Virus record (IMG/VR): IMGVR_UViG_3300045988_074874
DNA: 64,000 nt
Direction: 5' to 3' (one strand)
Source of the DNA: a virus
Shown: positions 2,831-59,647 of the stretch, one piece after another
Numbering within the stretch: position 1 is the stretch's first letter
Layout: each line of letters starts with the position of its first letter
Program-made: the position numbers and the translations under genes
The notes under the pieces: model-generated
Told to the model about the DNA's origin: nothing
Databases searched by the model: none
The model's input: the letters and a program-made list of their open reading frames with translations, nothing else

Positions 2831-3270
2831 GATTACCATTATCGCAGTAGCAATTAATATTCTGATATTTACTACATTAGCTGCATTTTTAATGAGCCGG
2901 AATTACAAAGGCAATCAATTTTCCACAGCATTCTTCTTGCTGATGGAAGCAGGAATGATACTTAATACAGTTTTGATTTGCACAGCGAGGTAAAAATATG
3001 CTTTTAGCATTTCCTACGAGGATTATTCCGTTTTTTATCATAGAACGGGTTAAACCTATAATTAAACCGGAAGGATACGCTTACCCGATTGTGGAGCGGT
3101 ACGCAAGCAAATATTCTTTACATCCGACTTAGCGTTAAAAAATTTCTGTAGTCGATTATATTAAATTTGATTTCCTCCACATATATTGTTTGCATTACAG
3201 AAATAGTAATTATATCACACACAATTCTTTCTCCTGCTTTTGTGATGGTGCGGAGTGGGAGAAAGATTTT

Positions 3271-3342
3271 AGGGCTATCGCCAAAAGGTAAGGTAACGGA
3301 CTTTGATTCCGTCATGTGTGGGTTCGAATCCCACTAGCCCCG
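3271..3342 (+). tRNA. tRNA-Gln (anticodon TTG)
   Basis: Hand-folded cloverleaf: acceptor AGGGCTA/TAGCCCC, anticodon stem ACGGA/TCCGT with loop CTTTGAT, T-arm GTGGG-TTCGAAT-CCCAC. Confidence 0.55.
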
Positions 3343-3398
3343 TTTGCTAGGTTGCGCATGTACCTGGCAATGGTTTATTTCACATAGACCCTCCGATA

Positions 3399-3451
3399 CC
3401 CATCTAGCTCAACGGAGCTGATTAAAGGGGCTTCAAATGTCCCGGATGGGA
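3399..3451 (+). other. tRNA-like mini-element lacking an anticodon arm (acceptor + D-like hairpin + T-arm)
   Basis: 7-bp acceptor CCCATCT/GGATGGG, hairpin AGCTC-AACG-GAGCT, T-arm GGGGC-TTCAAAT-GTCCC; only 53 nt. Confidence 0.35.
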
Positions 3452-3572
3452 ATCCTCGTAAAAACGAGGTACTCTATTTTGCCATGACCTTTGTTGCGGC
3501 TGGTGGCAAAGAACTGCAACAGTAGAAGCAAATCAACTCAAAATCTGCAATCCGGGAGACTGCTTCTACTCA

Positions 3573-3645
3573 GGAAATTTAGTTCAGCGGTTAGAACGCC
3601 CGGCTCATAACCGGGAAGCCCTGAGTTCGAATCTCAGAATTTCCA
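3573..3645 (+). tRNA. tRNA-Met/fMet/Ile2 (anticodon CAT)
   Basis: Clean cloverleaf: GGAAATT acceptor, GTTC-AGCGGTTAGAAC D-arm, CCCGG-CTCATAA-CCGGG anticodon arm, CTGAG-TTCGAAT-CTCAG T-arm. Confidence 0.8.
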
Positions 3646-4022
3646 TTTCTTCCGTATGCTACCCATCCGTTTTATGGGCAGAAAAAACTTTCGGATGAGC
3701 GTATGTGAATCAGAATGAGCAAAGGTATGTAACGGCATAGGCTTGTGCTTGATCTGATTTCCCGTCCGATAAATGCTTCTTAGTTTCAATAAGTCATCAT
3801 AAGTGCACGTTGATGGCAGGGAGTTTTCAAGAAGCATAAAGTTAAAAGGCATAATAATATCCGAAACAACTCCGTGGAGCATACCACGGTTACCAAAAAG
3901 CCGTCAGGTTGGCAAAAATACGATAGTCCAAGTTATGAAAAATTGCCTAGTGGAAAGCATAACACGAAAAAATCATTGCTAACCCGGAACAATCTCCGGG
4001 TTCTGGGGGAATAATACCATAA

Positions 4023-4075
4023 GGGGCAGAGGGCTGATTAACAGTACCAGAGCGGTTCAACTCCGCATTCTCCCA
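4023..4075 (+). other. possible second anticodon-arm-less tRNA-like element
   Basis: GGGGCAG acceptor-like 5' end, GCTG-ATTAA-CAGT hairpin, GCGG-TTCAACT-CCGC T-arm-like, TTCTCCC 3' end; pairing imperfect. Confidence 0.25.
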
Positions 4076-4175
4076 TTATCCAATCTGTAAATATTGGATA
4101 TGAGGAAGCTGTCCGAGATGTAAGAAACAGTCGGCTTGTGGATTGCCGGTACAAATACGCTGAAAATCCACACAA

Positions 4176-4247
4176 GGCAGGGTAGAGAAGTGGAATCTCA
4201 CAAGACTCATATTCTTGAGAACGGCGGTTCGAATCCGCCTCCTGCAA
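4176..4247 (+). tRNA. tRNA with CAT anticodon (Met/Ile2 type), G1-A72 mismatch
   Basis: GAGA-AGTGGAA-TCTC D-arm, CAAGA-CTCATAT-TCTTG anticodon arm, GGCGG-TTCGAAT-CCGCC T-arm, acceptor GGCAGGG/TCCTGCA. Confidence 0.55.
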
Positions 4248-4532
4248 CTTAATCCGCTTAGAGTTAAGTTGTTTGTATACAGGCGGTCTATGCCTCTGGT
4301 GGATTTACGCATGAGCGTAAACGTACAACTCACTAGGCGTTTGCGTAAAAAACTTTTTAGAGAGATGAGACCACTGGCCGTAAGAAGTGATAGTCGGCAA
4401 TTCTAAAAGAACCATCTAGTTCATGCGTTTTACGATGGAAAGGTTAATGCTTATCTGGATATTTGTGTCCAGTCCGAAAGCATATGAAGTGAAAATCAAC
4501 TCAGTTTTTTTAACTGACCGTGACAAGCGGTA

Positions 4533-4601
4533 CGGAATGTAGCTCAGGTGGGAGAGCGCACTACAAAAGTGAGGTCGCAGGTTCGAATCCTGCCTTTCCG
4601 A
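4533..4601 (+). ncRNA. tRNA-like RNA with truncated/non-canonical anticodon arm (69 nt)
   Basis: Canonical acceptor, D-arm (GCTC-AGGTGGGA-GAGC) and T-arm (GCAGG-TTCGAAT-CCTGC) but only 18 nt where 21-22 are needed, giving a 3-4 bp anticodon stem and a 5-7 nt loop. Confidence 0.4.
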
Positions 4602-4654
4602 TTCCTGCGGATTGCCATCGTAGGAATAAATTACTCCTAAGGTATAGTTTGGTT

Positions 4655-4706
4655 TCCAGTACTCCACGTTGGGTGGCTAGTTACGGTTCAAGTCCGTGTG
4701 CTGGAA
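4655..4706 (+). other. tRNA-like mini-element lacking an anticodon arm
   Basis: Acceptor TCCAGTA/TGCTGGA (extendable to 8 bp), CCAC-GTTGG-GTGG hairpin, T-arm TACGG-TTCAAGT-CCGTG; 52 nt. Confidence 0.35.
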
Positions 4707-4728
4707 TTTTTGTTTAGAGAGGTGGCTT

Positions 4729-4908
4729 ATGGAAGAAAAAAATTATTGTTGTACATGTAAATGGTACGCACTGGAAGAAGGAGTCTGCTGTAATGGTGAA
4801 AGCGAACATCGTGCAGATTTCAGATGCCTTGATGATAGTTGTGAATGTTGGGAGGGTATTGAAAATGACAGAACAAGAAGTAAAGAAAATGACAGAAGAT
4901 TTATCTGA
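4729..4908 (+). CDS. small Cys-rich protein (59 aa, putative Zn-binding)
   Basis: ATG with RBS AGAGAGGTGG; ten cysteines in CxC/CC spacing (CCTCKWY...VCCNG...CLDDSCEC). Confidence 0.35.
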   Translation: MEEKNYCCTCKWYALEEGVCCNGESEHRADFRCLDDSCECWEGIENDRTRSKENDRRFI

Positions 4909-7625: not shown

Positions 7626-8210
7626 ATGAAAAAGATACCAACATTATTTGAGCGAGAATTTAAAGACCATAAGGTTGTAAAGGTTCTTCCGAAAGTGCAT
7701 CCGGGCATGGAATGGGTACTTAAAGGAGAAGGTGTTGCAACAGTCAAATACGACGGTTCTTGCTGCGCGATAATTGACGGAGAATATTATAAAAGATATG
7801 ACTGCAAGAAAGGCAAGATACCACCAGAGGGATTTATTCCTTGTTGCAAACCAGATTCCATTACAGGTCACTGGCCGGGATGGGTAAAGGTTGATGAGAA
7901 TAATCCGTCTGATAAGTGGTTTTTGAAAGCGTATAGTCCGATAAAAGGAAATGTAACAATTTATCTAGCTAACGGAACATACGAAGCAATAGGAAAATAT
8001 TTCTGCGGAAATCCGTACAATATGGATTACGATACACTTGTTAAACATGGCGACGAAATCGTTAAAGTTGAAAGAACATTCGAAGGAATCAAGAAATATC
8101 TTTCCGAACACAAGATAGAGGGATTAGTTTTCTGGAAAGACGGAAGCCCACAATGTAAAATCAAGCGTTCAGATTTTGGCTTTGAATGGCCAGTAAAGGG
8201 GAATTTATGA
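7626..8210 (+). CDS. minimal nucleotidyltransferase of the ATP-dependent RNA/DNA ligase superfamily
   Basis: Motif I VKYDGS (Rnl-type KxDGS), motif IV EGLVFW, motif V CKIKRSDF; only 194 aa. Confidence 0.4.
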   Translation: MKKIPTLFEREFKDHKVVKVLPKVHPGMEWVLKGEGVATVKYDGSCCAIIDGEYYKRYDCKKGKIPPEGFIPCCKPDSITGHWPGWVKVDENNPSDKWFLKAYSPIKGNVTIYLANGTYEAIGKYFCGNPYNMDYDTLVKHGDEIVKVERTFEGIKKYLSEHKIEGLVFWKDGSPQCKIKRSDFGFEWPVKGNL

Positions 8211-8371
8211 ATCCAGTATTTATATTTCTAGTGATATGCGGAGCAGTGGCAGTATGGTTTCTGCTTTACAAATTATTTCAGCCACTAGGTAAATTATTGA
8301 ATCACATTGGCAAAAATGCCATTGATGAGTTAAATAAAGATGAAAGTCAAAATAAGGAGGACAAAGAATGA
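8207..8371 (+). CDS. small membrane protein (54 aa)
   Basis: RBS AAAGGGGAA; single TM helix VFIFLVICGAVAVWFLLY. Confidence 0.35.
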   Translation: MNPVFIFLVICGAVAVWFLLYKLFQPLGKLLNHIGKNAIDELNKDESQNKEDKE

Positions 8372-9321
8372 AAAAAGGACTTTTAGGTGGAATTGGATTA
8401 GCTGTTGTAATCATTGCAGGACTTATATGCGTTGCAAAGTGTAGTGTAAAGGTTCCAGCCGGTTACATTGCGGTCGAGTACAAAATGAACGGGGGAATCT
8501 CCAAGAATGTACTTACGCAGGGGTGGCATTTGATTTCACCTACAGTAAAAACTTCACTGTATTCTGTTGGAATCGAACAGTCTTATCTTACATCTGAAGA
8601 TAAAGGCGATTCTCCAAAAGATGAAAGTTTCAAGACACCAACGGCAGATGGCAAATCTCTTTTAGTTGATTTGGAATTTTCGTATAAATTCGATCAGAAC
8701 AGAGTAACTGATGTATTTACTCAGTTTAAAGGTCAATCCGGGGAATCTGTAAAAAACACCTTTATTAAGCCGAAAATGAAAGCATGGACGCAGGAAGTAA
8801 CTGCGAAGTATCCAGTAACAGATGTTTTCGGTGATAAGCGTCAGGAACTGAATGAAGCACTTGACGAATATCTTAAACGGAAGTTTGAACCATACGGAAT
8901 CATTATTGATACAGTAAACTTTACTTCTATTTCCACTGATGATGAAACACAAGCTGCAATCCAAAAGAAAGTAAATGCACAGCAAGAGCTTGAATTGGCC
9001 AATATTGAAGCTAAAACAGCCAAAGTACAAGCCGATAAAGATAAAGAAGTTGCACTGATTGCTGCTGAACAGGAAAAAGAAAAAGCAGCTATTCAGGCAG
9101 AACAAGCCAAAATTGATGCAGAAGGTAAAGCCGAAGCGATTAAGATTAAAGCTGAAGCCGAAGCGGAAGCAAATAGAAAAATTGCAGAATCACTTACTCC
9201 TGAACTGATTGAAAAACAGAAAATTGATAAATGGGATGGTGAAGTTCCGAAGATTCAGGGAAGTAACACTTCTACCATCGTAGACACAAGAGATATGACA
9301 GCCGATGAGAATGCTGAATAA
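8368..9321 (+). CDS. SPFH/band-7 (prohibitin/flotillin-like) membrane protein
   Basis: N-terminal TM helix, SPFH core, Ala/Glu/Lys-rich coiled-coil tail typical of the family. Confidence 0.7.
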   Translation: MKKGLLGGIGLAVVIIAGLICVAKCSVKVPAGYIAVEYKMNGGISKNVLTQGWHLISPTVKTSLYSVGIEQSYLTSEDKGDSPKDESFKTPTADGKSLLVDLEFSYKFDQNRVTDVFTQFKGQSGESVKNTFIKPKMKAWTQEVTAKYPVTDVFGDKRQELNEALDEYLKRKFEPYGIIIDTVNFTSISTDDETQAAIQKKVNAQQELELANIEAKTAKVQADKDKEVALIAAEQEKEKAAIQAEQAKIDAEGKAEAIKIKAEAEAEANRKIAESLTPELIEKQKIDKWDGEVPKIQGSNTSTIVDTRDMTADENAE

Positions 9322-9395: not shown

Positions 9396-11132
9396 ATGCA
9401 AAAATTCACAGAAGGTTCGCTTGAATGGTATCGGGCAATTTTAAATCAAATCATTAATGATGATATGACAGTCTGTCAAAATCAGAAGGACTGCCTTGAT
9501 TTACTTTTGAATATGAATATTGACCTTCCTTTCAAGGATAATCCAGATGCACGGAATATGGCAATGAAAGTCAGCCGGTACGCTCATACAACTGCGGCAA
9601 GAAACGCGGCACTGACTGGAAGCGGTAATTTTGATGATATTTACTGGCAGTATTTATTATTGGAAGCACAGAACTATCAGGTTGACAGCGGGCTTCTTTA
9701 CCTTGAAAAGAACCGAATCCCGAAAGAACGATTCTATGAACCACGAAGAAATGTGTTCTTGCAGCATAACATCATAGGTTCACTGCAAGACCTGATGGAT
9801 GACAAATTAGATATATTTGCATTAAGCGTACCTCCGGGTTGTGGAAAGAGTACTCTGGAAGATTTCTTTTTATCATTGGTAGGTGGATGGTTCCCGAATG
9901 ACTTTAACCTGTCTTCGGCACACAGTAGCATTCTGACACGTTCCCTTTATGATGGTGTTCTGGAAATTATCAATGATCCCGTGGAATACACGTGGCATGA
10001 GATATTCCCTAACGTAGAAATTCAAGGAACAAATGCAAAGGAAACTACAGTCAATCTCGAAAGAAACGGACGATTTAAGACATGGACATTTCGTTCTATT
10101 GATGGCTCTTTGACTGGTGCCACTAGATGCAATAGATTCCTTACTGCCGATGACCTTGTGTCTGGTATTGAAGAAGCTTTGAATAAGAACCGACTTGATA
10201 CCCTGTGGACAAAAGTGGTAAATGACTTGCGTTCCCGTAGACTTGAGGGATGCAAAGAGTTTTATATTGCCACCAGATGGTCAGTACATGACCCTATCGG
10301 AAAACTGCAACAACTATATGCCGGAAACCCACGGGCAAGGTTTATTGCAGTTCCAGCACTTGATGAAAACGGAAAGAGCAATTTTCTGTTTACGGTAAAT
10401 GGATTCTCAGAGAAATATTTCAATGATGCTAAAGAATCCATGGATGAAATTTCTTACAACTGTCTTTATCAGCAACAGCCGGTAGAACGTGAGGGATTAT
10501 TATTACCACCGGACAAATTAAAACGATTCTTTTTCAGTAAAGAAGACGTGCCGGATGGATGCGCGGATGAATACATTATCATTCCAGATAAAGATGCAGA
10601 TGCGATATGGGCGGTATGTGATACAAAAGATAAAGGAACTGACTTCGAATCATTACCGATTGCATACCAATACGGAGATAAATTCTTCTTTCCCGATGTG
10701 GTGTTTGATGACACTACAGACTATGACATTTTGGATAGAAAGACAGCAGATATTTTGGTAAGACATAACCCACATAAGATTCGTTTCGAATCAAATAATG
10801 TCGGAAACCGTGTGGCACACAATATCCAGAAAATGATTACCGGAAAGTGTCGAGCTGAAATTGAGACAAAACCAACGTCAGCAAATAAAGAAACAAAGAT
10901 TCTTGTAAATTCGGACTATATAGCAAAACATTTTTATTTTCTGCATCCAAGTCAGTACAAAGCAAAGTCTGATTACGGATTGTTTATGGCTAATGTAACT
11001 ACGTACACTACTAGGGCAAAAGTACCACATGATGACGGAATCGATTCTTTGGCTATGATGGCTGAGTACATACAAAATCCATTAGGTGGTAAAGCAACGG
11101 CAATGCAGAATCCATTTTGGGGAAGGAGATAG
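9396..11132 (+). CDS. terL: terminase large subunit
   Basis: 578 aa; Walker A LSVPPGCGKST, nuclease-domain acidic motifs (ATRWSVHD, DDGIDSL), position upstream of portal. Confidence 0.85.
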   Translation: MQKFTEGSLEWYRAILNQIINDDMTVCQNQKDCLDLLLNMNIDLPFKDNPDARNMAMKVSRYAHTTAARNAALTGSGNFDDIYWQYLLLEAQNYQVDSGLLYLEKNRIPKERFYEPRRNVFLQHNIIGSLQDLMDDKLDIFALSVPPGCGKSTLEDFFLSLVGGWFPNDFNLSSAHSSILTRSLYDGVLEIINDPVEYTWHEIFPNVEIQGTNAKETTVNLERNGRFKTWTFRSIDGSLTGATRCNRFLTADDLVSGIEEALNKNRLDTLWTKVVNDLRSRRLEGCKEFYIATRWSVHDPIGKLQQLYAGNPRARFIAVPALDENGKSNFLFTVNGFSEKYFNDAKESMDEISYNCLYQQQPVEREGLLLPPDKLKRFFFSKEDVPDGCADEYIIIPDKDADAIWAVCDTKDKGTDFESLPIAYQYGDKFFFPDVVFDDTTDYDILDRKTADILVRHNPHKIRFESNNVGNRVAHNIQKMITGKCRAEIETKPTSANKETKILVNSDYIAKHFYFLHPSQYKAKSDYGLFMANVTTYTTRAKVPHDDGIDSLAMMAEYIQNPLGGKATAMQNPFWGRR

Positions 11133-11133
11133 C

Positions 11134-11556
11134 ATGGATATAAAGGAATATCTGAATCAAATTCAACGATATGAAAAAGTTATAAATAACAAACTGGAAG
11201 AAATCGAACACTTAAAATTGCTTGCTACTAGCATTAGTGCTTCGACGTATGGCATTGAACGCGTTCAAACTTCTGGAAGCCAAGATAAAATAGGCGATAC
11301 AATTGCAAAATTGGTGGATGCGCAGCGTGAACTGGCTGATAATGTGGTAGAACTTATGGATAAGAAGCAGAAACTTATAGATGTTATAGAGTCTGTGAAA
11401 AATCCCCAGTATTATGATTTTTTGTATAAACGATACGTAGAGGGAAAAAAGCTAACTGTCATTGCAGATGAAATGGAATACAATGAAGAATATATTAAAC
11501 AATTCCACGGGAAAGCAGTAAATTACGTAAAAGAAATGATTAATTTCAAAAGTTAG
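11134..11556 (+). CDS. putative late-gene regulator (ArpU/RinA or sigma region-4-like)
   Basis: 140 aa from ATG at 11134 (RBS GGGGAAGGAGAT); coiled-coil N-terminus and C-terminal HTH-like segment; sits directly before the first copy of the conserved motif. Confidence 0.35.
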   Translation: MDIKEYLNQIQRYEKVINNKLEEIEHLKLLATSISASTYGIERVQTSGSQDKIGDTIAKLVDAQRELADNVVELMDKKQKLIDVIESVKNPQYYDFLYKRYVEGKKLTVIADEMEYNEEYIKQFHGKAVNYVKEMINFKS

Positions 11557-11597
11557 CACCTTTTCTTACTGAATATAACTTTCCGATTATGTATAAT
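11555..11597 (+). promoter_or_regulatory. conserved motif AGCACCTTTTCTTACTGAATATAAC + 12 nt + TATAAT (copy 1 of 3), candidate late promoter
   Basis: Near-identical 25-mer at 23082 and diverged copy at 35641; each follows a stop codon and precedes a structural operon. Confidence 0.45.
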
Positions 11598-11672
11598 ATA
11601 TGATGAAAATGTATGAAGCATCGGGTGAAAACTCGGTGCTTTTTTCATGTCTAAAAATAGGAGGTATAGGCA

Positions 11673-22560: not shown

Positions 22561-23075
22561 GCGGACGAGTAATCAAATGCAATCTGAGTCAAAAATCTAT
22601 TGGAAATGCAATCAAAGAGTTGAAAGCATATCAAAACAGCCTTCGCGATAAAAATGAAGTATTTCTTAAAAGACTTTGCGAATTGGGAATTCCTGTCATA
22701 GACGAAAATATTATGTTGGCACAGGGAGATTCTGATAAAAACCACAATACCTACATCAAAATCAACAGGTTCGGAAATTACGCGCAGGCAACTCTTGTGT
22801 GCGAGGGTTCTGGGATTTTATTCATAGAATTCGGTGCAGGTATTTCGTACAACACTCCGGCAGGAACAAGCCCCCATCCAAAAGGAGAAGAATTTGGATA
22901 TACTATTGGTTCTTACGGACAGGGTAAAGGAGAAAATGAATCGTGGGTATATGTGGCAGATTCTGGCGAATGGGTACGTTCTTACGGTACGGAGGCTACA
23001 ATGCCCGTTTACAAAGCAAGTGTAGAAATTATGCAGAACATCCGTAGAATCGCAAAAGAAGTGTTTTCTGCATAA
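22557..23075 (+). CDS. tail-completion / neck protein candidate
   Basis: 172 aa coupled ORF ahead of major tail protein region. Confidence 0.4.
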   Translation: MSGRVIKCNLSQKSIGNAIKELKAYQNSLRDKNEVFLKRLCELGIPVIDENIMLAQGDSDKNHNTYIKINRFGNYAQATLVCEGSGILFIEFGAGISYNTPAGTSPHPKGEEFGYTIGSYGQGKGENESWVYVADSGEWVRSYGTEATMPVYKASVEIMQNIRRIAKEVFSA

Positions 23076-23081
23076 AAACAT

Positions 23082-23124
23082 AGCACCTTTTCTTACTGAA
23101 TATAACGTCTGTTTTATGTATACT
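23082..23124 (+). promoter_or_regulatory. conserved motif copy 2 (AGCACCTTTTCTTACTGAATATAAC + 12 nt + TATACT)
   Basis: Identical 25-mer to 11555-11579. Confidence 0.45.
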
Positions 23125-23193
23125 GTAAGATATAAAAGCATCTACCGGAATGGTGGGTGCTTTTTCTATGCTCAAAACAAGGTGGTGACAGAG

Positions 23194-28052: not shown

Positions 28053-29272
28053 CATAGTAATGTGTTAGTGAAAATCGAGTAAAATCGGTAAAACCTGTAC
28101 TGAATACTGTATTTGTGTTATAATAAATACAGGTGATATGATTGAAAAAAGAATTTGTAATTTATACAGCAACTAATAAAATCAACGGGAAAATATACGT
28201 TGGAAAAACTTATAATTTTGAAAAAAGAAGAAAAGAGCATTTTTATGACATTAATGATGATATTCCTTTCCATAGAGCTTTAAAGAAATATGGAATTGAA
28301 AATTTTGAATGGAAAATCATTGATTGTGCCAAAACCGATGATGAAATAAAGGAAAAAGAAATATACTGGATAAAAAAGCTTAATACATGTATTCATTCAA
28401 AAAACTCAAATGGGTACAATATAACATTGGGTGGCGAAGGCGGTGTTTCGTGGAATTCACTTCCGGTTATTCAGTATGACTTAGATGGGAATTATATTCA
28501 AGAATTTCTAAGCTGCCAACATGCTTCAGTATGTACTGGAATAGGGCGCCATAATATAGGAGATTGTGCCAATGGAATTACTAAACAATCTGGTGGTTAT
28601 CAATGGAGATACAAAGTCGAAAATAAAATTGACTCCATAGAAGCGTATCAAAGGGCAGAATCACCTCGCAAAAGAAGTATCATACAGCTAGATCTTGATG
28701 GAAATTTTATAAACACTTTCAATTCCGTAACAGAAGCAAGCAAAAAGATTGGAATAGGAAGAGCTAATATATCTTCTTGTTTAACTGGTAAAATAAAAAG
28801 AAGTGGTGGTTATCAATGGATTTACGCAGATAACTATGACGAAAATCAAAATTATAAGTTTAAAGGAATATCAGAGGGTAATGGAATATTCCAATTAGAT
28901 CAGAACAAGAAAATAATAAATCATTTTAATAATTGTTCTGAAGCAGCGAGGTTTCTAGGAGAAGAAACAAAAGTACACAAACAAATTCATAAAGCAATAA
29001 ACACCGGCCACAAATGTAGAGGATTCTACTGGTGCAAGTGTGATGATTATATCAATATTCAGCATGGCAATACCGAGGTAATCGCATAGATAGCGAAAGG
29101 CTATGCGACACCGTAGAGCGTAGGAGATGAATAAATATAATTCTCCCAAGAGTGCTCGACAACCATAAGACGTAGAAATACGTCTTATTTTTATGGTTGA
29201 AAATGTACGCCGACCTTATGGGAAACCATAAGAAGTAGAGGATAAAAAGCCTTTACGATAACAAAGTGAAAT
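28023..29272 (+). mobile_element. candidate group I intron carrying a GIY-YIG homing endonuclease, splitting the tape measure gene (boundaries approximate)
   Basis: The conserved TMP motif ...TIDD | (N)QPANQIRMLQSNFASLGRTIG is restored across a 1.25 kb interruption; ~300 nt of non-ORF sequence with hairpins flanks the HEG ORF. Confidence 0.35.
28142..29089 (+). CDS. GIY-YIG homing endonuclease with repeated GGYQW DNA-binding modules (TTG start)
   Basis: FVIYTATNKINGKIYVGKTYNFEKRRKEH is the GIY-YIG motif; three NUMOD-like repeats (SGGYQWRYK, SGGYQWIY); embedded in the TMP gene. Confidence 0.7.
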   Translation: MKKEFVIYTATNKINGKIYVGKTYNFEKRRKEHFYDINDDIPFHRALKKYGIENFEWKIIDCAKTDDEIKEKEIYWIKKLNTCIHSKNSNGYNITLGGEGGVSWNSLPVIQYDLDGNYIQEFLSCQHASVCTGIGRHNIGDCANGITKQSGGYQWRYKVENKIDSIEAYQRAESPRKRSIIQLDLDGNFINTFNSVTEASKKIGIGRANISSCLTGKIKRSGGYQWIYADNYDENQNYKFKGISEGNGIFQLDQNKKIINHFNNCSEAARFLGEETKVHKQIHKAINTGHKCRGFYWCKCDDYINIQHGNTEVIA

Positions 29273-32464: not shown

Positions 32465-32578
32465 TTTGGTAAAACCAACAGGCTAGACCGATCATCGAAA
32501 AGCGGAAATGCCTTGCCGCCTGCCTGTTGATTTACATACATTTCAAGGCATCTTATATACGAAAGGCAGGTATTTTCT

Positions 32579-33784
32579 ATGGAAAGAATTCCTATTAGTA
32601 AGAAAATTAGATTTGAAGTATTTAAAAGAGATCAATTTACATGTCAGTACTGTGGACGCATGGCTCCAGATGTAATATTAGAAGTTGACCATATCGATCC
32701 AGTGGCAGAAGGCGGCACCAATGATATTATGAATTTAATCACATCATGCCGGGATTGTAATAGAGGGAAAGGCAAAAATAAACTTTCCGATAAAAAAATT
32801 ATATCATTGCAACAACAATCTTTAAAAGAATTAGCTGAAAAAAGAGAGCAGCTCGAAATGGTTGCTGAATGGAAGAAAGAATTGTTGAATTACAACACCC
32901 AAGCAATTAATATGCTTTCAGATTATTTTGAGCAATTAACTGGTTCTAGTGTGAACGAACATGGCAGAAATAATATTAATGTATGGTTAAAACGTTTTGG
33001 AGTAGAAAAAATAATGACTGCCATGGAAAATTCTGTAAAAACATATTGTAAAGAGTTTTCATATGAAGAAATTGAAAAAGCTTTTAAAAAGATTCCTGGA
33101 GTTTGTATAAATTGTGAAAAAGGAAATAGTTCGCAAATTTATTATTTTAATTACATAAAGAAAGTCCTTAACTCCAAGAATATAAAATTTGATTTGAAGT
33201 TATTGAAATATTATGTCGATACTTATTTGGTTTCCGATGATGCTTTCGAAGAAGAGAAAAAAACGAAAAGATATATTAAAATGTTCGAAAATAGAAAATT
33301 TGATATTAGCATAAAAAAAGTACAAGACAGAATTATGCAAAATTGTTATATACCTATGGGTGACATTGACTGTAAGAAAACGATTGAAAATCTTAAATAT
33401 GGTTTAAATACGAATCATAAAGGATATTTTTTCTCGGACAGGTATTCGCTTCAGAACAGAATTGATTTAAAACCATACGTTAAAAATTTTATTGAATTTA
33501 TTGAAGAATTTTACAAAGAATATTACAACACATTTAACGAACCTCATCCCAAATTAACCATCGAACAATGTTTAAAATTATTGAACAGATATGCTTGGAA
33601 TGCGTATTGGGGCTTAGCGACCAAAGAAACTTATCGTAATATGTCTTTTGTTCTTTCGATTGGAAAAGAGATGAATTCGAAAGTTCGAATAATGGAAGCC
33701 ATGTCCGCTTGCGGCACGGGGATATGCCGGGAAAAATATGAAGAATATGAATCAGAAAAGGGTACACATAAATTTGAATGTTGA
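32579..33784 (+). CDS. HNH endonuclease (free-standing, 401 aa)
   Basis: N-terminal CQYCG...DHIDPVAEGGTNDIMNLITSCRDCNRGKG HNH motif. Confidence 0.65.
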   Translation: MERIPISKKIRFEVFKRDQFTCQYCGRMAPDVILEVDHIDPVAEGGTNDIMNLITSCRDCNRGKGKNKLSDKKIISLQQQSLKELAEKREQLEMVAEWKKELLNYNTQAINMLSDYFEQLTGSSVNEHGRNNINVWLKRFGVEKIMTAMENSVKTYCKEFSYEEIEKAFKKIPGVCINCEKGNSSQIYYFNYIKKVLNSKNIKFDLKLLKYYVDTYLVSDDAFEEEKKTKRYIKMFENRKFDISIKKVQDRIMQNCYIPMGDIDCKKTIENLKYGLNTNHKGYFFSDRYSLQNRIDLKPYVKNFIEFIEEFYKEYYNTFNEPHPKLTIEQCLKLLNRYAWNAYWGLATKETYRNMSFVLSIGKEMNSKVRIMEAMSACGTGICREKYEEYESEKGTHKFEC

Positions 33785-35332: not shown

Positions 35333-35641
35333 ATGCAGACTAATTATATTGAACTTGGAAGAAGTCGCTTTTTCAGGAACAAACAATTTGCCTACATAGA
35401 CACAATGGGATTTCTTGCTGATCGGATTTTTATAGAGAATAAAGTCCGAGTAAAATTCTGTGGGGACTACAAACACAGAGAGAAAAATTATGTTGTCGTA
35501 ATCTGCAAAGTAAAGGAAAAAGATGTACCTATGTTTTTGCAGGCACTGAAAGAATTAAAGAATCGGGCACTTCTTATGGGGAATACGGATTATGAGACAT
35601 TTTGCAAAGAACAAATCCGTTTAATGCAAAGCAAAATATAA
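35333..35641 (+). CDS. hypothetical protein
   Basis: ORF, RBS GAGGTATATAAAA. Confidence 0.4.
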   Translation: MQTNYIELGRSRFFRNKQFAYIDTMGFLADRIFIENKVRVKFCGDYKHREKNYVVVICKVKEKDVPMFLQALKELKNRALLMGNTDYETFCKEQIRLMQSKI

Positions 35642-35663
35642 CTTTTTCTTACTGAATCTCACC
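35641..35663 (+). promoter_or_regulatory. conserved motif copy 3 (ACTTTTTCTTACTGAATCTCACC), diverged
   Basis: Shares CTTTTTCTTACTGAAT with copies at 11555 and 23082; upstream of the tail-fibre/endolysin operon. Confidence 0.35.
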
Positions 35664-54196: not shown

Positions 54197-55216
54197 ATGG
54201 ATAAAGAAATTGTTGCAAATTTTGAGAATTTATATCGTTCTTACAAAAAGGTTAAGAGCGGTAAGAAATTTAATTCAGGTACTGCAAGATTTTCTAATTT
54301 GTCTCTTGAAGGCATTCATCTCTTGAAGGAACAATTGGAAAGTCAAACGTATACCATAAATCCGTATAATAAATTTCAAATTCATGAGCCAAAAGAGCGA
54401 ACGATAGAATCATGTGCATTTAAGGACAAAGTAGTGCAGAGATGCTTTTCTGATTACATTCTGACACCAAAACTTGAAAATATCCTGATTAAATGGAACA
54501 CTGCCGGGCAGCAAGGAAAAGGACAACATATGGCGATGGATGGATTAAGAGATCAGATGTTGAATTTCTATAAAAGAAATGGAATGAATAGTTGGATTGT
54601 AAAATGTGATATTCATAAATATTTTTACAACATAGACCATGAAATTATGAAAGACGTGCTGGACTATTATTTTGATGATAGTTTTACGACTTGGCTGAAT
54701 CATTTGTTTATCGATAGTACAGATAATCCGGGAATTCCATTAGGGAATCAGGTAAATCAGAAATACGCTCTTTTGTTGTTACATTCATTGGATCAAATGA
54801 TAACGATTGAATTTGGAAATCCATATTACGGACGATACAACGATGATTTTTATGTGATTTGTAAAACGAAAGAAGATGCCAGAGAAATTCTTGAAGCAAT
54901 CCGAATGATGATTGAAAGCCTTAGACTGGAACTAAACCCTAAATCACAAATTGTACCGTTTCGCATGGGATTGTGTTATCTGGGCTTTCATCATTACGTG
55001 ACTGATAAAGGAAAATATATCAGAAAATTGCGTGGCGATAAGAAAAGAAAAACACAGAGAAAAATCCGCAGGTGGGTACGGACAGTAAATGACGGAAAGA
55101 TGTCAATGGAAAAATTTAATGAAAAGTATGGAGCATGTAAGAACCATATGCTTCATGGGGACTGCATTAAATTATGCCACAGTATGGATTTAGAAATTGA
55201 AAGGAGAATGAAGTGA
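54197..55216 (+). CDS. reverse transcriptase, DGR type
   Basis: Motifs: VKCDIHKYFYNIDHEIM (RT motif 1/2), PLGNQVNQ (DGR-type I/LGxxxSQ variant), RYNDDFYV (YxDD), LELNPKSQI. Confidence 0.8.
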   Translation: MDKEIVANFENLYRSYKKVKSGKKFNSGTARFSNLSLEGIHLLKEQLESQTYTINPYNKFQIHEPKERTIESCAFKDKVVQRCFSDYILTPKLENILIKWNTAGQQGKGQHMAMDGLRDQMLNFYKRNGMNSWIVKCDIHKYFYNIDHEIMKDVLDYYFDDSFTTWLNHLFIDSTDNPGIPLGNQVNQKYALLLLHSLDQMITIEFGNPYYGRYNDDFYVICKTKEDAREILEAIRMMIESLRLELNPKSQIVPFRMGLCYLGFHHYVTDKGKYIRKLRGDKKRKTQRKIRRWVRTVNDGKMSMEKFNEKYGACKNHMLHGDCIKLCHSMDLEIERRMK

Positions 55217-58846: not shown

Positions 58847-59647
58847 ATGCAGAATTATAAAAAATATGCAATTCCAAGAGCACAACTTGTAATTGCGGAT
58901 GTGCCTTACAATGTTGGCAACAATTTTTATGGTAGCAACCCTATGTGGTATACAGGGGGCGATAACAAAAACGGTGAAAGTAAATTAGCCGGAAAAGCAG
59001 CTTTTAACTCAGACTTCAATTTCAACTTGTATGAGTACTTTCATTTCTGCTCAAGAATGTTGAAGAAAGAAGATAAAAAGCCCATACAAAGAGGAAGAAG
59101 CAGCAATTCACCGTGTATGATCGTATTTTGCTCATTTGAACAAATTCAAACTCTGATTAATGCAGCTGCAAAACATGGATTTATCCATTATATCCCCCTT
59201 ATATTTATCAAAAACTATAGTCCACAGGTGCTAAAAGCGAATATGCGTGTAGTTGGTGCCACGGAATATGCGCTTCTGTTTTACAGAGACCGACTTCCAA
59301 AATTCAGAAACGGCGCACAGTTTGACGAAAATGGAAAGACAATCAGAGGAACCGGACACATGGTATTTAACTGGTTCCAGTGGGAAAGAGACCCAAAAGA
59401 TATCCCGAAGATTCACCCTGCGCAGAAACCAGTTGCACTTTTAAAGAAACTGATTAAAACGTTTACTGATTCCGGCGATGTAGTTATTGACCCATGCTGT
59501 GGAAGCGGAGCCACATTGCGAGCCGCGTATGAGCTTGGAAGGAATGCTTACGGATTCGAAATTGATCGGACATTTTACGAAAGAGCAAAGAATGAAATGC
59601 TTATCTTCGAGAAATATTCGCAAATGAATATTAATGATCTTATCTAA
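58847..59647 (+). CDS. N6-adenine/N4-cytosine DNA methyltransferase (beta class)
   Basis: Motif IV ADVPYN before motif I DPCCGSGAT. Confidence 0.6.
   Translation: MQNYKKYAIPRAQLVIADVPYNVGNNFYGSNPMWYTGGDNKNGESKLAGKAAFNSDFNFNLYEYFHFCSRMLKKEDKKPIQRGRSSNSPCMIVFCSFEQIQTLINAAAKHGFIHYIPLIFIKNYSPQVLKANMRVVGATEYALLFYRDRLPKFRNGAQFDENGKTIRGTGHMVFNWFQWERDPKDIPKIHPAQKPVALLKKLIKTFTDSGDVVIDPCCGSGATLRAAYELGRNAYGFEIDRTFYERAKNEMLIFEKYSQMNINDLI

Follow-up and report, generated by a model that had tools for sequence, protein, structure and literature searches.

Transfer RNA (tRNA) genes are very common accessory genes of phages, and their presence is usually explained by codon supply or by the replacement of tRNAs that defence nucleases have cut. 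Here, we describe a tRNA cluster in a 64,000-nucleotide (nt) stretch of viral DNA (IMG/VR virus record IMGVR_UViG_3300045988_074874; the whole stretch is referred to as the window), and in particular two short elements within it, mini1 and mini3, which resemble tRNAs but have no anticodon arm. The window's phage is a member of a very common group of ~80-kb human-gut phages. The closest cultured relative of its large terminase, with 42% identity, is that of a [Clostridium] innocuum phage, which is the sole clue to the host. The "tRNA cluster" is a 1.4-kb island of structured RNAs without an Rfam match, and its members are listed in Table 1. Three canonical tRNA genes are included, and ARAGORN and Rfam agree on all three with an initial annotation that had been made from the sequence alone. 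In related loci the order of the cluster is Gln, mini1, Met, variable tRNAs, last tRNA, hairpin and mini3, with constant ends and a variable middle; tRNA-Gln lies upstream of mini1 at a distance of 121-197 nt. No tRNA or mini element of the window encodes CCA, and U follows the discriminator base in most of them, which is usual for tRNA genes of Bacillota without an encoded CCA.

Table 1. Features of the RNA island and of the adjoining start of the downstream message, in window coordinates (MFE, minimum free energy; ORF, open reading frame; R1 and R2, covariance models of the mini1 and mini3 families).
Feature	Position	Strand	Basis and remarks
tRNA-Gln (UUG)	3271..3342	+	ARAGORN; Rfam tRNA, 59.5 bits; constant first member of the cluster
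Hairpin directly 3' of tRNA-Gln, then U-rich stretch	3344..3370	+	Fold; stem varies by lineage and stays paired
C/U-rich anti-Shine-Dalgarno-like motif CCCUCC	3389..3394	+	5' leader of mini1; unpaired in the predicted fold
mini1, 53-nt tRNA-like RNA without anticodon arm	3399..3451	+	MFE fold; R1, 80.1 bits; covariation
Hairpin directly 3' of mini1 (CCUCGU/ACGAGG), then U-rich tail	3454..3469	+	Fold; terminator-like site
Conserved stem UUGUUGCGG/CUGCAACAG, possible pseudoknot (CUUUG/CAAAG) and covarying hairpin	3488..3569	+	Alignment of 83 spacers
tRNA-Met (CAU)	3573..3645	+	ARAGORN; Rfam, 74 bits; constant cluster member
Conserved structured non-coding RNA, ~290-375 nt	3646..4002	+	RNAalifold, nine diverse homologues
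71-nt irregular tRNA-like gene ("mini2" is its 3' two-thirds)	4005..4075	+	Pairing scan; fold
tRNA with CAU anticodon	4176..4247	+	ARAGORN; Rfam, 54.6 bits; 1:72 flagged as non-standard, G1-A72 in the sequence
69-nt tRNA-like gene with 3-bp anticodon stem	4533..4601	+	Infernal/Rfam, 48.7 bits; ARAGORN, Cys-ACA
Hairpin directly 3' of the last tRNA, UUCCUGCG...CGUAGGAA	4602..4626	+	Stem covaries between lineages
mini3, 52-nt tRNA-like RNA without anticodon arm	4655..4706	+	MFE fold; R2, 76.6 bits; covariation
U-run UUUUUGUUU, ribosome-binding site GAGAGGUGG and ATG (4729) of a small Cys-rich ORF (4729-4908)	4707..4731	+	Read from the sequence

The comparison draws on several sets of related loci. 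Eighty loci were chosen solely through the terminase gene, >120 further loci were found in viral contigs through a mini1 sequence pattern, and another 119 came from metagenomes. The pattern used for the metagenome set fixes the mini1 linker and three T-stem pairs and leaves the acceptor and the hairpin unconstrained; these two free parts hold most of the mini1 covariation. The first alignments were built from a scan that demanded perfect pairing, and the count was then redone on position-defined homologues. For mini3, the sequences were taken from the pairing-filtered scan, and a search by anchors alone, with no pairing demanded, returned only 52-nt variants that were all already in that scan. 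The criteria of the pairing-based scan (a 7-bp acceptor, a T stem and a TTC-type loop) gave 0-2 matches in shuffled copies of the window; in the real window, they gave the cluster elements only, plus a match at 58908-58962 on the minus strand that lies inside an ORF and is likely false. Rfam 15 was searched at the gathering threshold over the whole window and at E <= 10 over positions 3150-4800 (1.65 kb), and within this scope no family was found for mini1, mini3, the 357-nt RNA at 3646 or the pseudoknot region.

The structure of mini1 begins with a 7-bp acceptor stem whose last pair is U-G, continues with a 5-bp hairpin that opens with an A-U pair and a linker with the sequence GAUUAAA, and ends with a 5-bp T stem, the T loop UUCAAAU and a discriminator A. 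The MFE and centroid structures are both identical to the proposed fold (-22.0 kcal/mol, z = -3.0), which is retained when the whole 230-nt spacer is folded. R1 finds a single significant copy in the window and, among the 80 terminase-selected loci, one copy in 68, each on the gene strand; as read, the loci missed by R1 or R2 have truncated flanks, apart from two with a clean deletion of mini1. Over nearly all of the ~200 related gut-phage contigs, mini1 and mini3 are each present once and on the gene strand. Compensatory changes are found in all three helices of mini1. In a set of 33 sequences, made of position-defined homologues and divergent lineages, 97.5% of cells are paired, both sides have changed in 11 of 17 pairs, and none of 500 shuffles equals the observed value on four of five measures. 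With metagenome variants included (71 distinct sequences), the corresponding values are 96.9%, 13 of 17 pairs and 0/500 shuffles on all five measures, and shifting the 3' partners by one, two or three columns lowers pairing to 34-55%.

The pattern of conservation in mini1 also tells which molecule carries the structure. The U7-G66 wobble (7:66) is present in 70 of the 71 sequences and G-U recurs in the T stem at 52:62; because these pairs would mismatch on the other strand, the structure is that of a plus-strand RNA, and a role at the DNA level, as an attP, pac or cos site, was rejected on the same ground. All four Watson-Crick pairs are seen at 1:72 and all four bases at the discriminator, which argues against a specific aminoacylation identity. 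Conserved positions are U7-G66, the A-U pair that opens the hairpin (A8-U), the linker as G-UAAA and GGG/CCC in the T stem. In canonical tRNAs, the T loop is closed by G53-C61 and the D loop holds G18-G19. Of the 71 mini1 sequences, 56 have C-G at 53:61, and only some lineages have GG in the hairpin loop. Two further candidates for the region were considered and set aside. A small ORF in mini1 has a start-like context in the window (AAAGGGG, with AUG 6 nt on), but this AUG is lost in many homologues. A hammerhead or hepatitis delta virus-like ribozyme, considered for mini1 and the pseudoknot, does not fit in its junction-strand lengths and helix order and has no Rfam match.

In mini3, the acceptor stem is 8 bp and the hairpin 4 bp long; a linker of 6 nt leads to a T stem of 4 bp, closed towards its loop by G-C, and the discriminator is A. 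The hairpin loop GUUGG and the T loop UUCAAGU are both invariant. Again, the MFE and centroid structures coincide with the proposed fold (-19.1 kcal/mol, z = -2.3), and R2 finds a single significant copy in the window and one copy on the gene strand in 74/80 terminase-selected loci. All cells are paired (100%) in 15 distinct sequences, with both-side changes in 9 of 16 pairs, and 0-1 of 500 shuffles equal the observed value on four of five measures. The 8:65 pair covaries (C-G, U-A and G-C), which sets the geometry of mini3 at 8+4 bp, as against 7+5 bp in mini1. mini3 is always the final RNA gene of the cluster. In all relatives its 8-bp closing stem is followed by one base and 4-9 U, and beyond this U-run come a ribosome-binding site and a start codon 20-27 nt on, even where the ORF differs.

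mini1 and mini3 thus share three traits with canonical tRNAs, namely an acceptor/T stack of 12 bp (7+5 in mini1 and 8+4 in mini3) that is supported by covariation, a 7-nt T loop of the UUCRANY type and a single discriminator base. The anticodon arm of canonical tRNAs, with its 5-bp stem and 7-nt loop, is absent, and only 7 nt (mini1) or 6 nt (mini3) separate the hairpin from the T stem. This linker of 5-7 nt corresponds to position 26 plus a normal variable loop, as though positions 27-43 had been cleanly excised. Tools made for tRNAs do not see such molecules: ARAGORN calls no tRNA at mini1, mini3 or 4005-4075, and neither does Infernal with RF00005 (gathering score, 29 bits) at E <= 10. Treating the two elements as one family was rejected on the finding that R1 and R2 do not cross-detect, mini3 reaching 6.6 bits with the mini1 model; they are two distinct families that share one architecture. 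The identity of both is established: they are structured RNAs of the plus strand, mimics of a tRNA top half that are unable to decode.

These results change the picture given by the initial annotation, which had listed three ~52-nt elements without an anticodon arm and a fourth with a truncated one. All of the T-arm sequences that it quoted are present, and its pairings for mini1 and mini3 are borne out by MFE and centroid folds and by the compensatory changes that related phages show in all three helices of both. "Mini2", on the other hand, has an arm and was mis-delimited; taken as 4023-4075, it has only a bulged 6-bp acceptor (z = -1.35). The proposal that a recurring architecture is not explained by tRNA decay stands for mini1 and mini3, which are kept in nearly every relative, and not for the other two elements. 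In ~200 loci, no full-length tRNA occupies the site of mini1 or mini3, whereas intact tRNAs are present at the orthologous sites of both "mini2" and 4533-4601, the outcome that the initial annotation had named as pointing to pseudogene remnants. The cluster does not hold three or four copies of one architecture; it holds two arm-less elements plus two degenerate tRNAs.

What, then, are the two degenerate genes? The gene at 4005 combines an acceptor of 8 bp (GGGGGAAU/AUUCUCCC) with a T stem of 4 bp; it lacks a D stem, its arm has the 5-nt loop AUUAA, and it is not called by ARAGORN, Rfam, R1 or R2. Many relatives carry at exactly this site a full tRNA-Tyr(GUA) of 84-92 nt with a near-identical acceptor stem, which makes 4005-4075 an irregular descendant or replacement of tRNA-Tyr rather than an arm-less element. 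The variant itself recurs with few substitutions in ~35 fetched loci. The gene at 4533 was described roughly correctly, in that its 69 nt align to the tRNA model with a 4-nt deletion in the anticodon stem and still pass the gathering score. It derives from a tRNA of 72 nt that relatives carry at this site, whose acceptor and T arms are the same but whose D and anticodon arms differ; the 69-nt form is found in seven other fetched loci. In the 72-nt penultimate tRNA (e.g. L198 and L167), the anticodons include UGU (Thr), UGA, UCA (opal-suppressor-like), CCA, UGC and UCU, and the D and anticodon arms are exchanged as a block between close relatives. As an intact tRNA stands at the orthologous site in relatives, 4005-4075 and 4533-4601 are filed here as degenerate tRNAs that have lost decoding features and kept the acceptor/T half.

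The spaces between these genes are structured as well. Every tRNA or tRNA-like gene is followed, 0-3 nt downstream, by a hairpin of 6-9 bp (3344-3370, 3454-3469, 4077-4100, 4247-4271 and 4602-4626), whose stem differs yet stays paired in the lineages compared and which in some cases has a U-rich tail. Nearly all 83 distinct Gln-Met spacers contain the element at 3488, which terminates 3 nt 5' of tRNA-Met. Compensatory changes in its stem and hairpin can be read off the alignment; a pseudoknot helix CUUUG/CAAAG interleaved with the stem is possible, which is invariant across the aligned spacers and hence has no covariation support. Downstream of tRNA-Met, which forms its 5' bound, lies the 357-nt RNA, with compensatory changes in 37 of 56 predicted pairs (RNAalifold, n = 9 homologues) and with one noise match only in Rfam at E <= 10. 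Between its 3' hairpin and the tRNA or tRNA-like gene that follows, of whatever kind, there are always 2-3 nt, and the strongly conserved blocks of this RNA are GAGUUUUCAAGAG and UAGUGGAAAGCAUAACACGAUAAAC.

A further signal lies ahead of mini1. Of 63 distinct contexts, 46 have the C/U-rich anti-Shine-Dalgarno-like motif within the 18 nt ahead of mini1, as against 5.9% of random 18-nt windows. The motif resembles the 3' end of 16S rRNA, occurs as CCCUCC, ACCUCCUUUC and GAUGACCUCCUUU, and is complementary to the invariant AAAGGGG within mini1. Reading the alignments revealed no conserved downstream pairing partner. The start of a minus-strand gene was rejected as the source of the CCUCC motif, as the reading frame in the window stops after one codon.

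The elements can be followed well beyond close relatives. The Gln-mini1-Met triad is still found in phages with a terminase of only 32-41% identity to that of the window. Furthermore, in other lineages with a terminase of 29-42% identity (L212, L299, L114, L153 and L243), the large terminase gene has a mini1-type element 0.14-1.3 kb upstream, on the same strand, and ARAGORN finds no tRNA nearby; in these lineages, only mRNA would be left to punctuate. Wherever the large terminase gene lies within the fetched locus, the mini1-type element is upstream of it, on the same strand, at 0.14-7 kb. Two tandem mini1-type copies ~120 nt apart are found in the divergent phage L203, and in L153 mini1 is followed after ~60 nt by a tRNA-like element of ~85 nt, missed by ARAGORN, whose "anticodon" stem is 8 bp long and whose loop has 6 nt. 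Pattern scans for mini1 and mini3 in 185,579 representative bacterial genomes gave 0 matches; there is thus no prophage copy and no host assignment by that route.

Several genes for RNA-related proteins lie near the cluster. An RLIG1-like RNA ligase is encoded at 7626-8210 (phrog_14301, E = 3.6e-55; PDB "RNA ligase1", E = 3e-10). The ligase gene comes 3 kb after the RNA island and shortly before the large terminase gene, and it adjoins that of an SPFH/Band-7 protein (8368-9321). In the window, L114 and L153, the terminase gene is followed by one for a Q-like/transcriptional regulator. In 51 of 206 fetched loci, the cluster contains the gene of a 486-amino-acid protein with DUF2828, DUF7788 and VWA domains (PHROG "RNA-binding protein"; 1933-3393 in L001). 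Two tRNA-like genes (1570-1690 and 1692-1790) precede it in L001, one of which has ~70 nt inserted at the site of the anticodon arm. The DUF2828 protein and these tRNA-like genes may form a pairing like that of Ro and Y RNA; as a Ro60 relative, the protein gave no sequence match to any solved structure.

Other features of the window stand apart from the island. A reverse transcriptase (RVT_1; phrog_1423, E = 3e-87) preceded by two DUF6273 paralogues occupies 52934-55216, and the 3' ends of the paralogues share a ~77-nt repeat that is 82% identical (53424-53500 and 54026-54101). The arrangement recalls a diversity-generating retroelement, a reading that was set aside here: only this repeat was found, and its mismatches are not cleanly adenine-specific. 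An int-alpA RNA at 32476-32548 (Rfam RF02996, 45.4 bits) lies directly upstream of a 401-amino-acid HNH-domain protein (32579-33784). The motif UAGCACCUUUUCUUACUGAAUAUAAC recurs at three module boundaries (11536-11614, 23063-23141 and 35619-35662), the first copy right after the Q-like/transcriptional-regulator gene at 11086-11556, and these repeats may be phage-specific promoters. In addition, ~15-20 tandem copies of a 27-nt unit (46572-47142) lie within the ORF 46297-47274 (phrog_4433), and a GIY-YIG/NUMOD1 homing-endonuclease gene is found amid structural genes at 28142-29089.

How might RNAs that cannot decode be of use to a phage? RNase P, RNase Z and the CCA-adding enzyme require only an acceptor/T-arm minihelix. 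The best-supported model, which we favour tentatively, is that mini1 and mini3 act in cis as processing punctuation for RNase P and RNase Z. In this model, both would be transcribed from the plus strand together with the tRNAs, host RNase P would recognise the element and cleave its 5' end, and RNase Z would cleave after the discriminator. Excision would give the neighbouring RNAs and the downstream mRNA defined ends: mini1 would free a short C-rich RNA upstream and the hairpin/pseudoknot RNA downstream, and mini3 would split the RNA island from an mRNA that starts ~23 nt later. The small D-like hairpin could form the elbow on the acceptor/T stack. The processed RNAs of 52-56 nt would probably receive CCA, could not decode, and would be unlikely to be charged by a specific synthetase. 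Like the true tRNAs beside them, the minis have no encoded CCA and usually a U after the discriminator, and the layout is consistent with such a role. A tRNA or tRNA-like unit brackets each structured RNA that was checked in the island, as well as the first downstream ORF, the pseudoknot RNA sits between mini1 and tRNA-Met, and acceptor/T modules on the same strand thus stand between RNAs or reading frames where a processing signal would be expected. The punctuation model would also explain why the degenerate tRNAs keep their top halves, as the acceptor/T half that 4005-4075 and 4533-4601 retain is what the same role would need. Of the other roles put forward in the initial annotation, serving as a substrate for CCA addition is likely a consequence of the structure and not a function in itself, and a decoy for anticodon nucleases is implausible for elements that have no anticodon loop to offer.

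Several observations weigh against punctuation. Chief among them, the junction of mini1 is near-invariant at ~30% terminase identity, which exceeds what a pure RNase P/Z signal would require, and the invariant GUUGG loop of mini3 is comparable; both point to a sequence-specific partner or a demanding tertiary fold. The C-G pair at 53:61 of mini1 departs from the canonical G53-C61. Adjacent true tRNAs already offer RNase P and RNase Z sites, and extra punctuation within the cluster is not obviously needed. Furthermore, U-tailed hairpins follow tRNA-Gln and mini1, and mini1 may not be reached by simple read-through from tRNA-Gln. Finally, two natural relatives, L078 and L081, lack mini1 through a clean deletion.

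A trans-acting role would account for this excess of sequence conservation, although we consider such a role unlikely. CCA-tailed minis would then be decoys or sponges that titrate or redirect a factor reading the tRNA elbow and acceptor end, the candidates being a phage protein or host defence toxins that attack the 3' ends or acceptor stems of tRNAs by modification or cleavage, such as those of the CapRel, MenT/AbiEii and CdiA types. Conservation of the mini1 junction and linker across ~30% terminase identity, beyond the needs of a cleavage signal, speaks for a partner of this kind, as do the invariant loops GUUGG and UUCAAGU of mini3, the RNA repair and RNA-binding genes near the cluster (the ligase and the DUF2828+VWA protein) and the loss of decoding ability in other cluster members whose top half is kept. 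However, the acceptor sequence and the discriminator vary freely, which would be odd for the decoy of an enzyme that reads the acceptor end, and the minis are present in loci that gave no homologue for the ligase or for any other window protein tested. A bolder version, which we rate as slightly less probable again, is that the minis are the founding class of CCA-tailed top-half mimics, RNAs barred from translation that would act in trans in anti-defence or host takeover. The conserved junction (U7-G66, A8-U and GAUUAAA) would be their specific recognition surface, and the factor that they occupy could be, e.g., a tRNA 3'-end-modifying toxin or a tRNA-quality-control or repair enzyme.

The position of the elements admits another explanation, in which the tRNA resemblance is secondary and the RNA acts co-transcriptionally as a regulatory leader of the large-terminase operon. 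Such a leader could, for example, be a branched terminator or attenuator, or it could govern how stable the downstream message is or how it is translated. A leader role would fit the constant placement of mini1-type elements upstream of the terminase gene, the closing stem of mini3 with its U-run and the ribosome-binding site next to it, the regulator gene after the terminase gene and the C/U-rich motif ahead of mini1. A terminator, however, needs a hairpin only, and would leave unexplained why the inner hairpin and the T arm covary, why the loops are T-loop-like or contain GG and why the stack has 12 bp; in most lineages, several kb and many genes separate mini1 from the terminase gene, and the C/U-rich motif has no conserved partner on reading the alignments. 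We therefore regard a leader as rather improbable, behind both forms of trans action. Least credible by far is that the elements are functionless, decaying tRNA pseudogenes or remnants of integration sites. The cluster does hold degenerate tRNAs and mini1 is missing from two relatives, but mini1 and mini3 are 97-100% paired with compensatory change in most pairs, are kept across very divergent phages with no full-length ancestor at the site, and have both acceptor strands, unlike the 3' fragments left by integrases. Even the two degenerate tRNAs recur in several genomes with intact acceptor and T arms. For mini1 and mini3, pseudogene decay is effectively excluded.

Whichever function applies, selection in a very common group of human-gut phages acts on the non-decoding half of the tRNA: two arm-less families are kept for their fold, and neighbouring tRNAs have lost anticodon features and kept the acceptor and T arms. 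mini1 and mini3 look like an undescribed tRNA mimic, and no description of an arm-less, free-standing tRNA top half conserved in phages was found in the open-access full-text literature. Standard tRNA finders and Rfam miss these elements, and similar islands have therefore probably been overlooked in phage annotation. If punctuation is true, the elements would be a counterpart in bacterial viruses of mitochondrial tRNA punctuation and mascRNA-type processing; if they are decoys, they would be a new kind of anti-defence RNA. Either way, they provide a natural free-standing tRNA top half, which is relevant to minihelix ideas on the origin of tRNA.

Known systems resemble the minis in different respects. 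YrlA-type Y RNAs contain a tRNA-like module with acceptor, D and T arms and are substrates of RNase P and of CCA addition, and they are encoded near tRNAs and RNA-repair genes, in phages as well (Chen et al. 2014, PMC4201824). Their 5' and 3' ends lie in the Ro60-binding stem with the acceptor-like stem internal, and the RNA of M. smegmatis is split into halves by RNase P (PMC4201824). The minis have their ends in the acceptor stem, have D before T and have no long Ro-binding helix; scans with Pfam and PHROG found no Ro-like protein among the window ORFs tested. The likeness lies in the tRNA mimicry, the status as (predicted) substrates of tRNA enzymes and the RNA-repair neighbourhood, and relatives of the window's phage have the DUF2828+VWA protein in the cluster, although minis occur in loci with and without it. 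Allo-tRNAs have an 8/4 acceptor/T geometry, and polycistrons of irregular tRNA-like sequences have been reported that are unusable for translation and whose role is unknown; allo-tRNAs were described from soil bacteria and metatranscriptomes, and not as arm-less elements of gut-phage operons (PMC7609411). mini3 and 4005-4075 have the 8/4 geometry in common with them, whereas the anticodon arm that allo-tRNAs keep is absent from mini3 and has a 5-nt loop in 4005-4075.

In anatomy, the closest relative is the tRNA-like domain of transfer-messenger RNA (tmRNA), with its acceptor stem, T arm, D-loop analogue and RNase P processing and without an anticodon arm. tmRNA differs in its G3-U70 alanine identity pair and its large mRNA-like insert; the minis have neither an insert nor a tag reading frame, and their 3:70 pair is C-G in 65/71 mini1 and 15/15 mini3 sequences. 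Searches for tmRNA itself gave none with ARAGORN and only an 8.4-bit Rfam match on a T arm. The tRNA-miRNA-encoded RNAs of murine gammaherpesvirus 68 (MHV68) and RNase P-processed phage small RNAs such as the C4 RNA of P1/P7 are cases in which host tRNA-processing enzymes release a small RNA beside a viral tRNA-like element. In these cases, viral tRNA-like units stand directly before hairpins, as they do in the window's cluster (0-3 nt, with covarying hairpins), but the tRNA-like parts of MHV68 are full cloverleaves, C4 has an acceptor-like end only, and hosts and transcription machinery differ from those of the window's phage. In function, the closest systems are the t-elements of plant mitochondria, the mascRNA of MALAT1 and its equivalent in MEN-beta, non-decoding tRNA-like structures in longer transcripts that RNase P and RNase Z recognise. 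These are eukaryotic or organellar and usually cloverleaf-like, with cleavage known where that of the minis is predicted only; the minis are phage-encoded and arm-less, have a conserved linker of 5-7 nt and form two sequence families across wide phage divergence. What t-elements and mascRNA do, setting the ends of neighbouring RNAs through RNase P and RNase Z, is the mechanism proposed here for mini1 and mini3.

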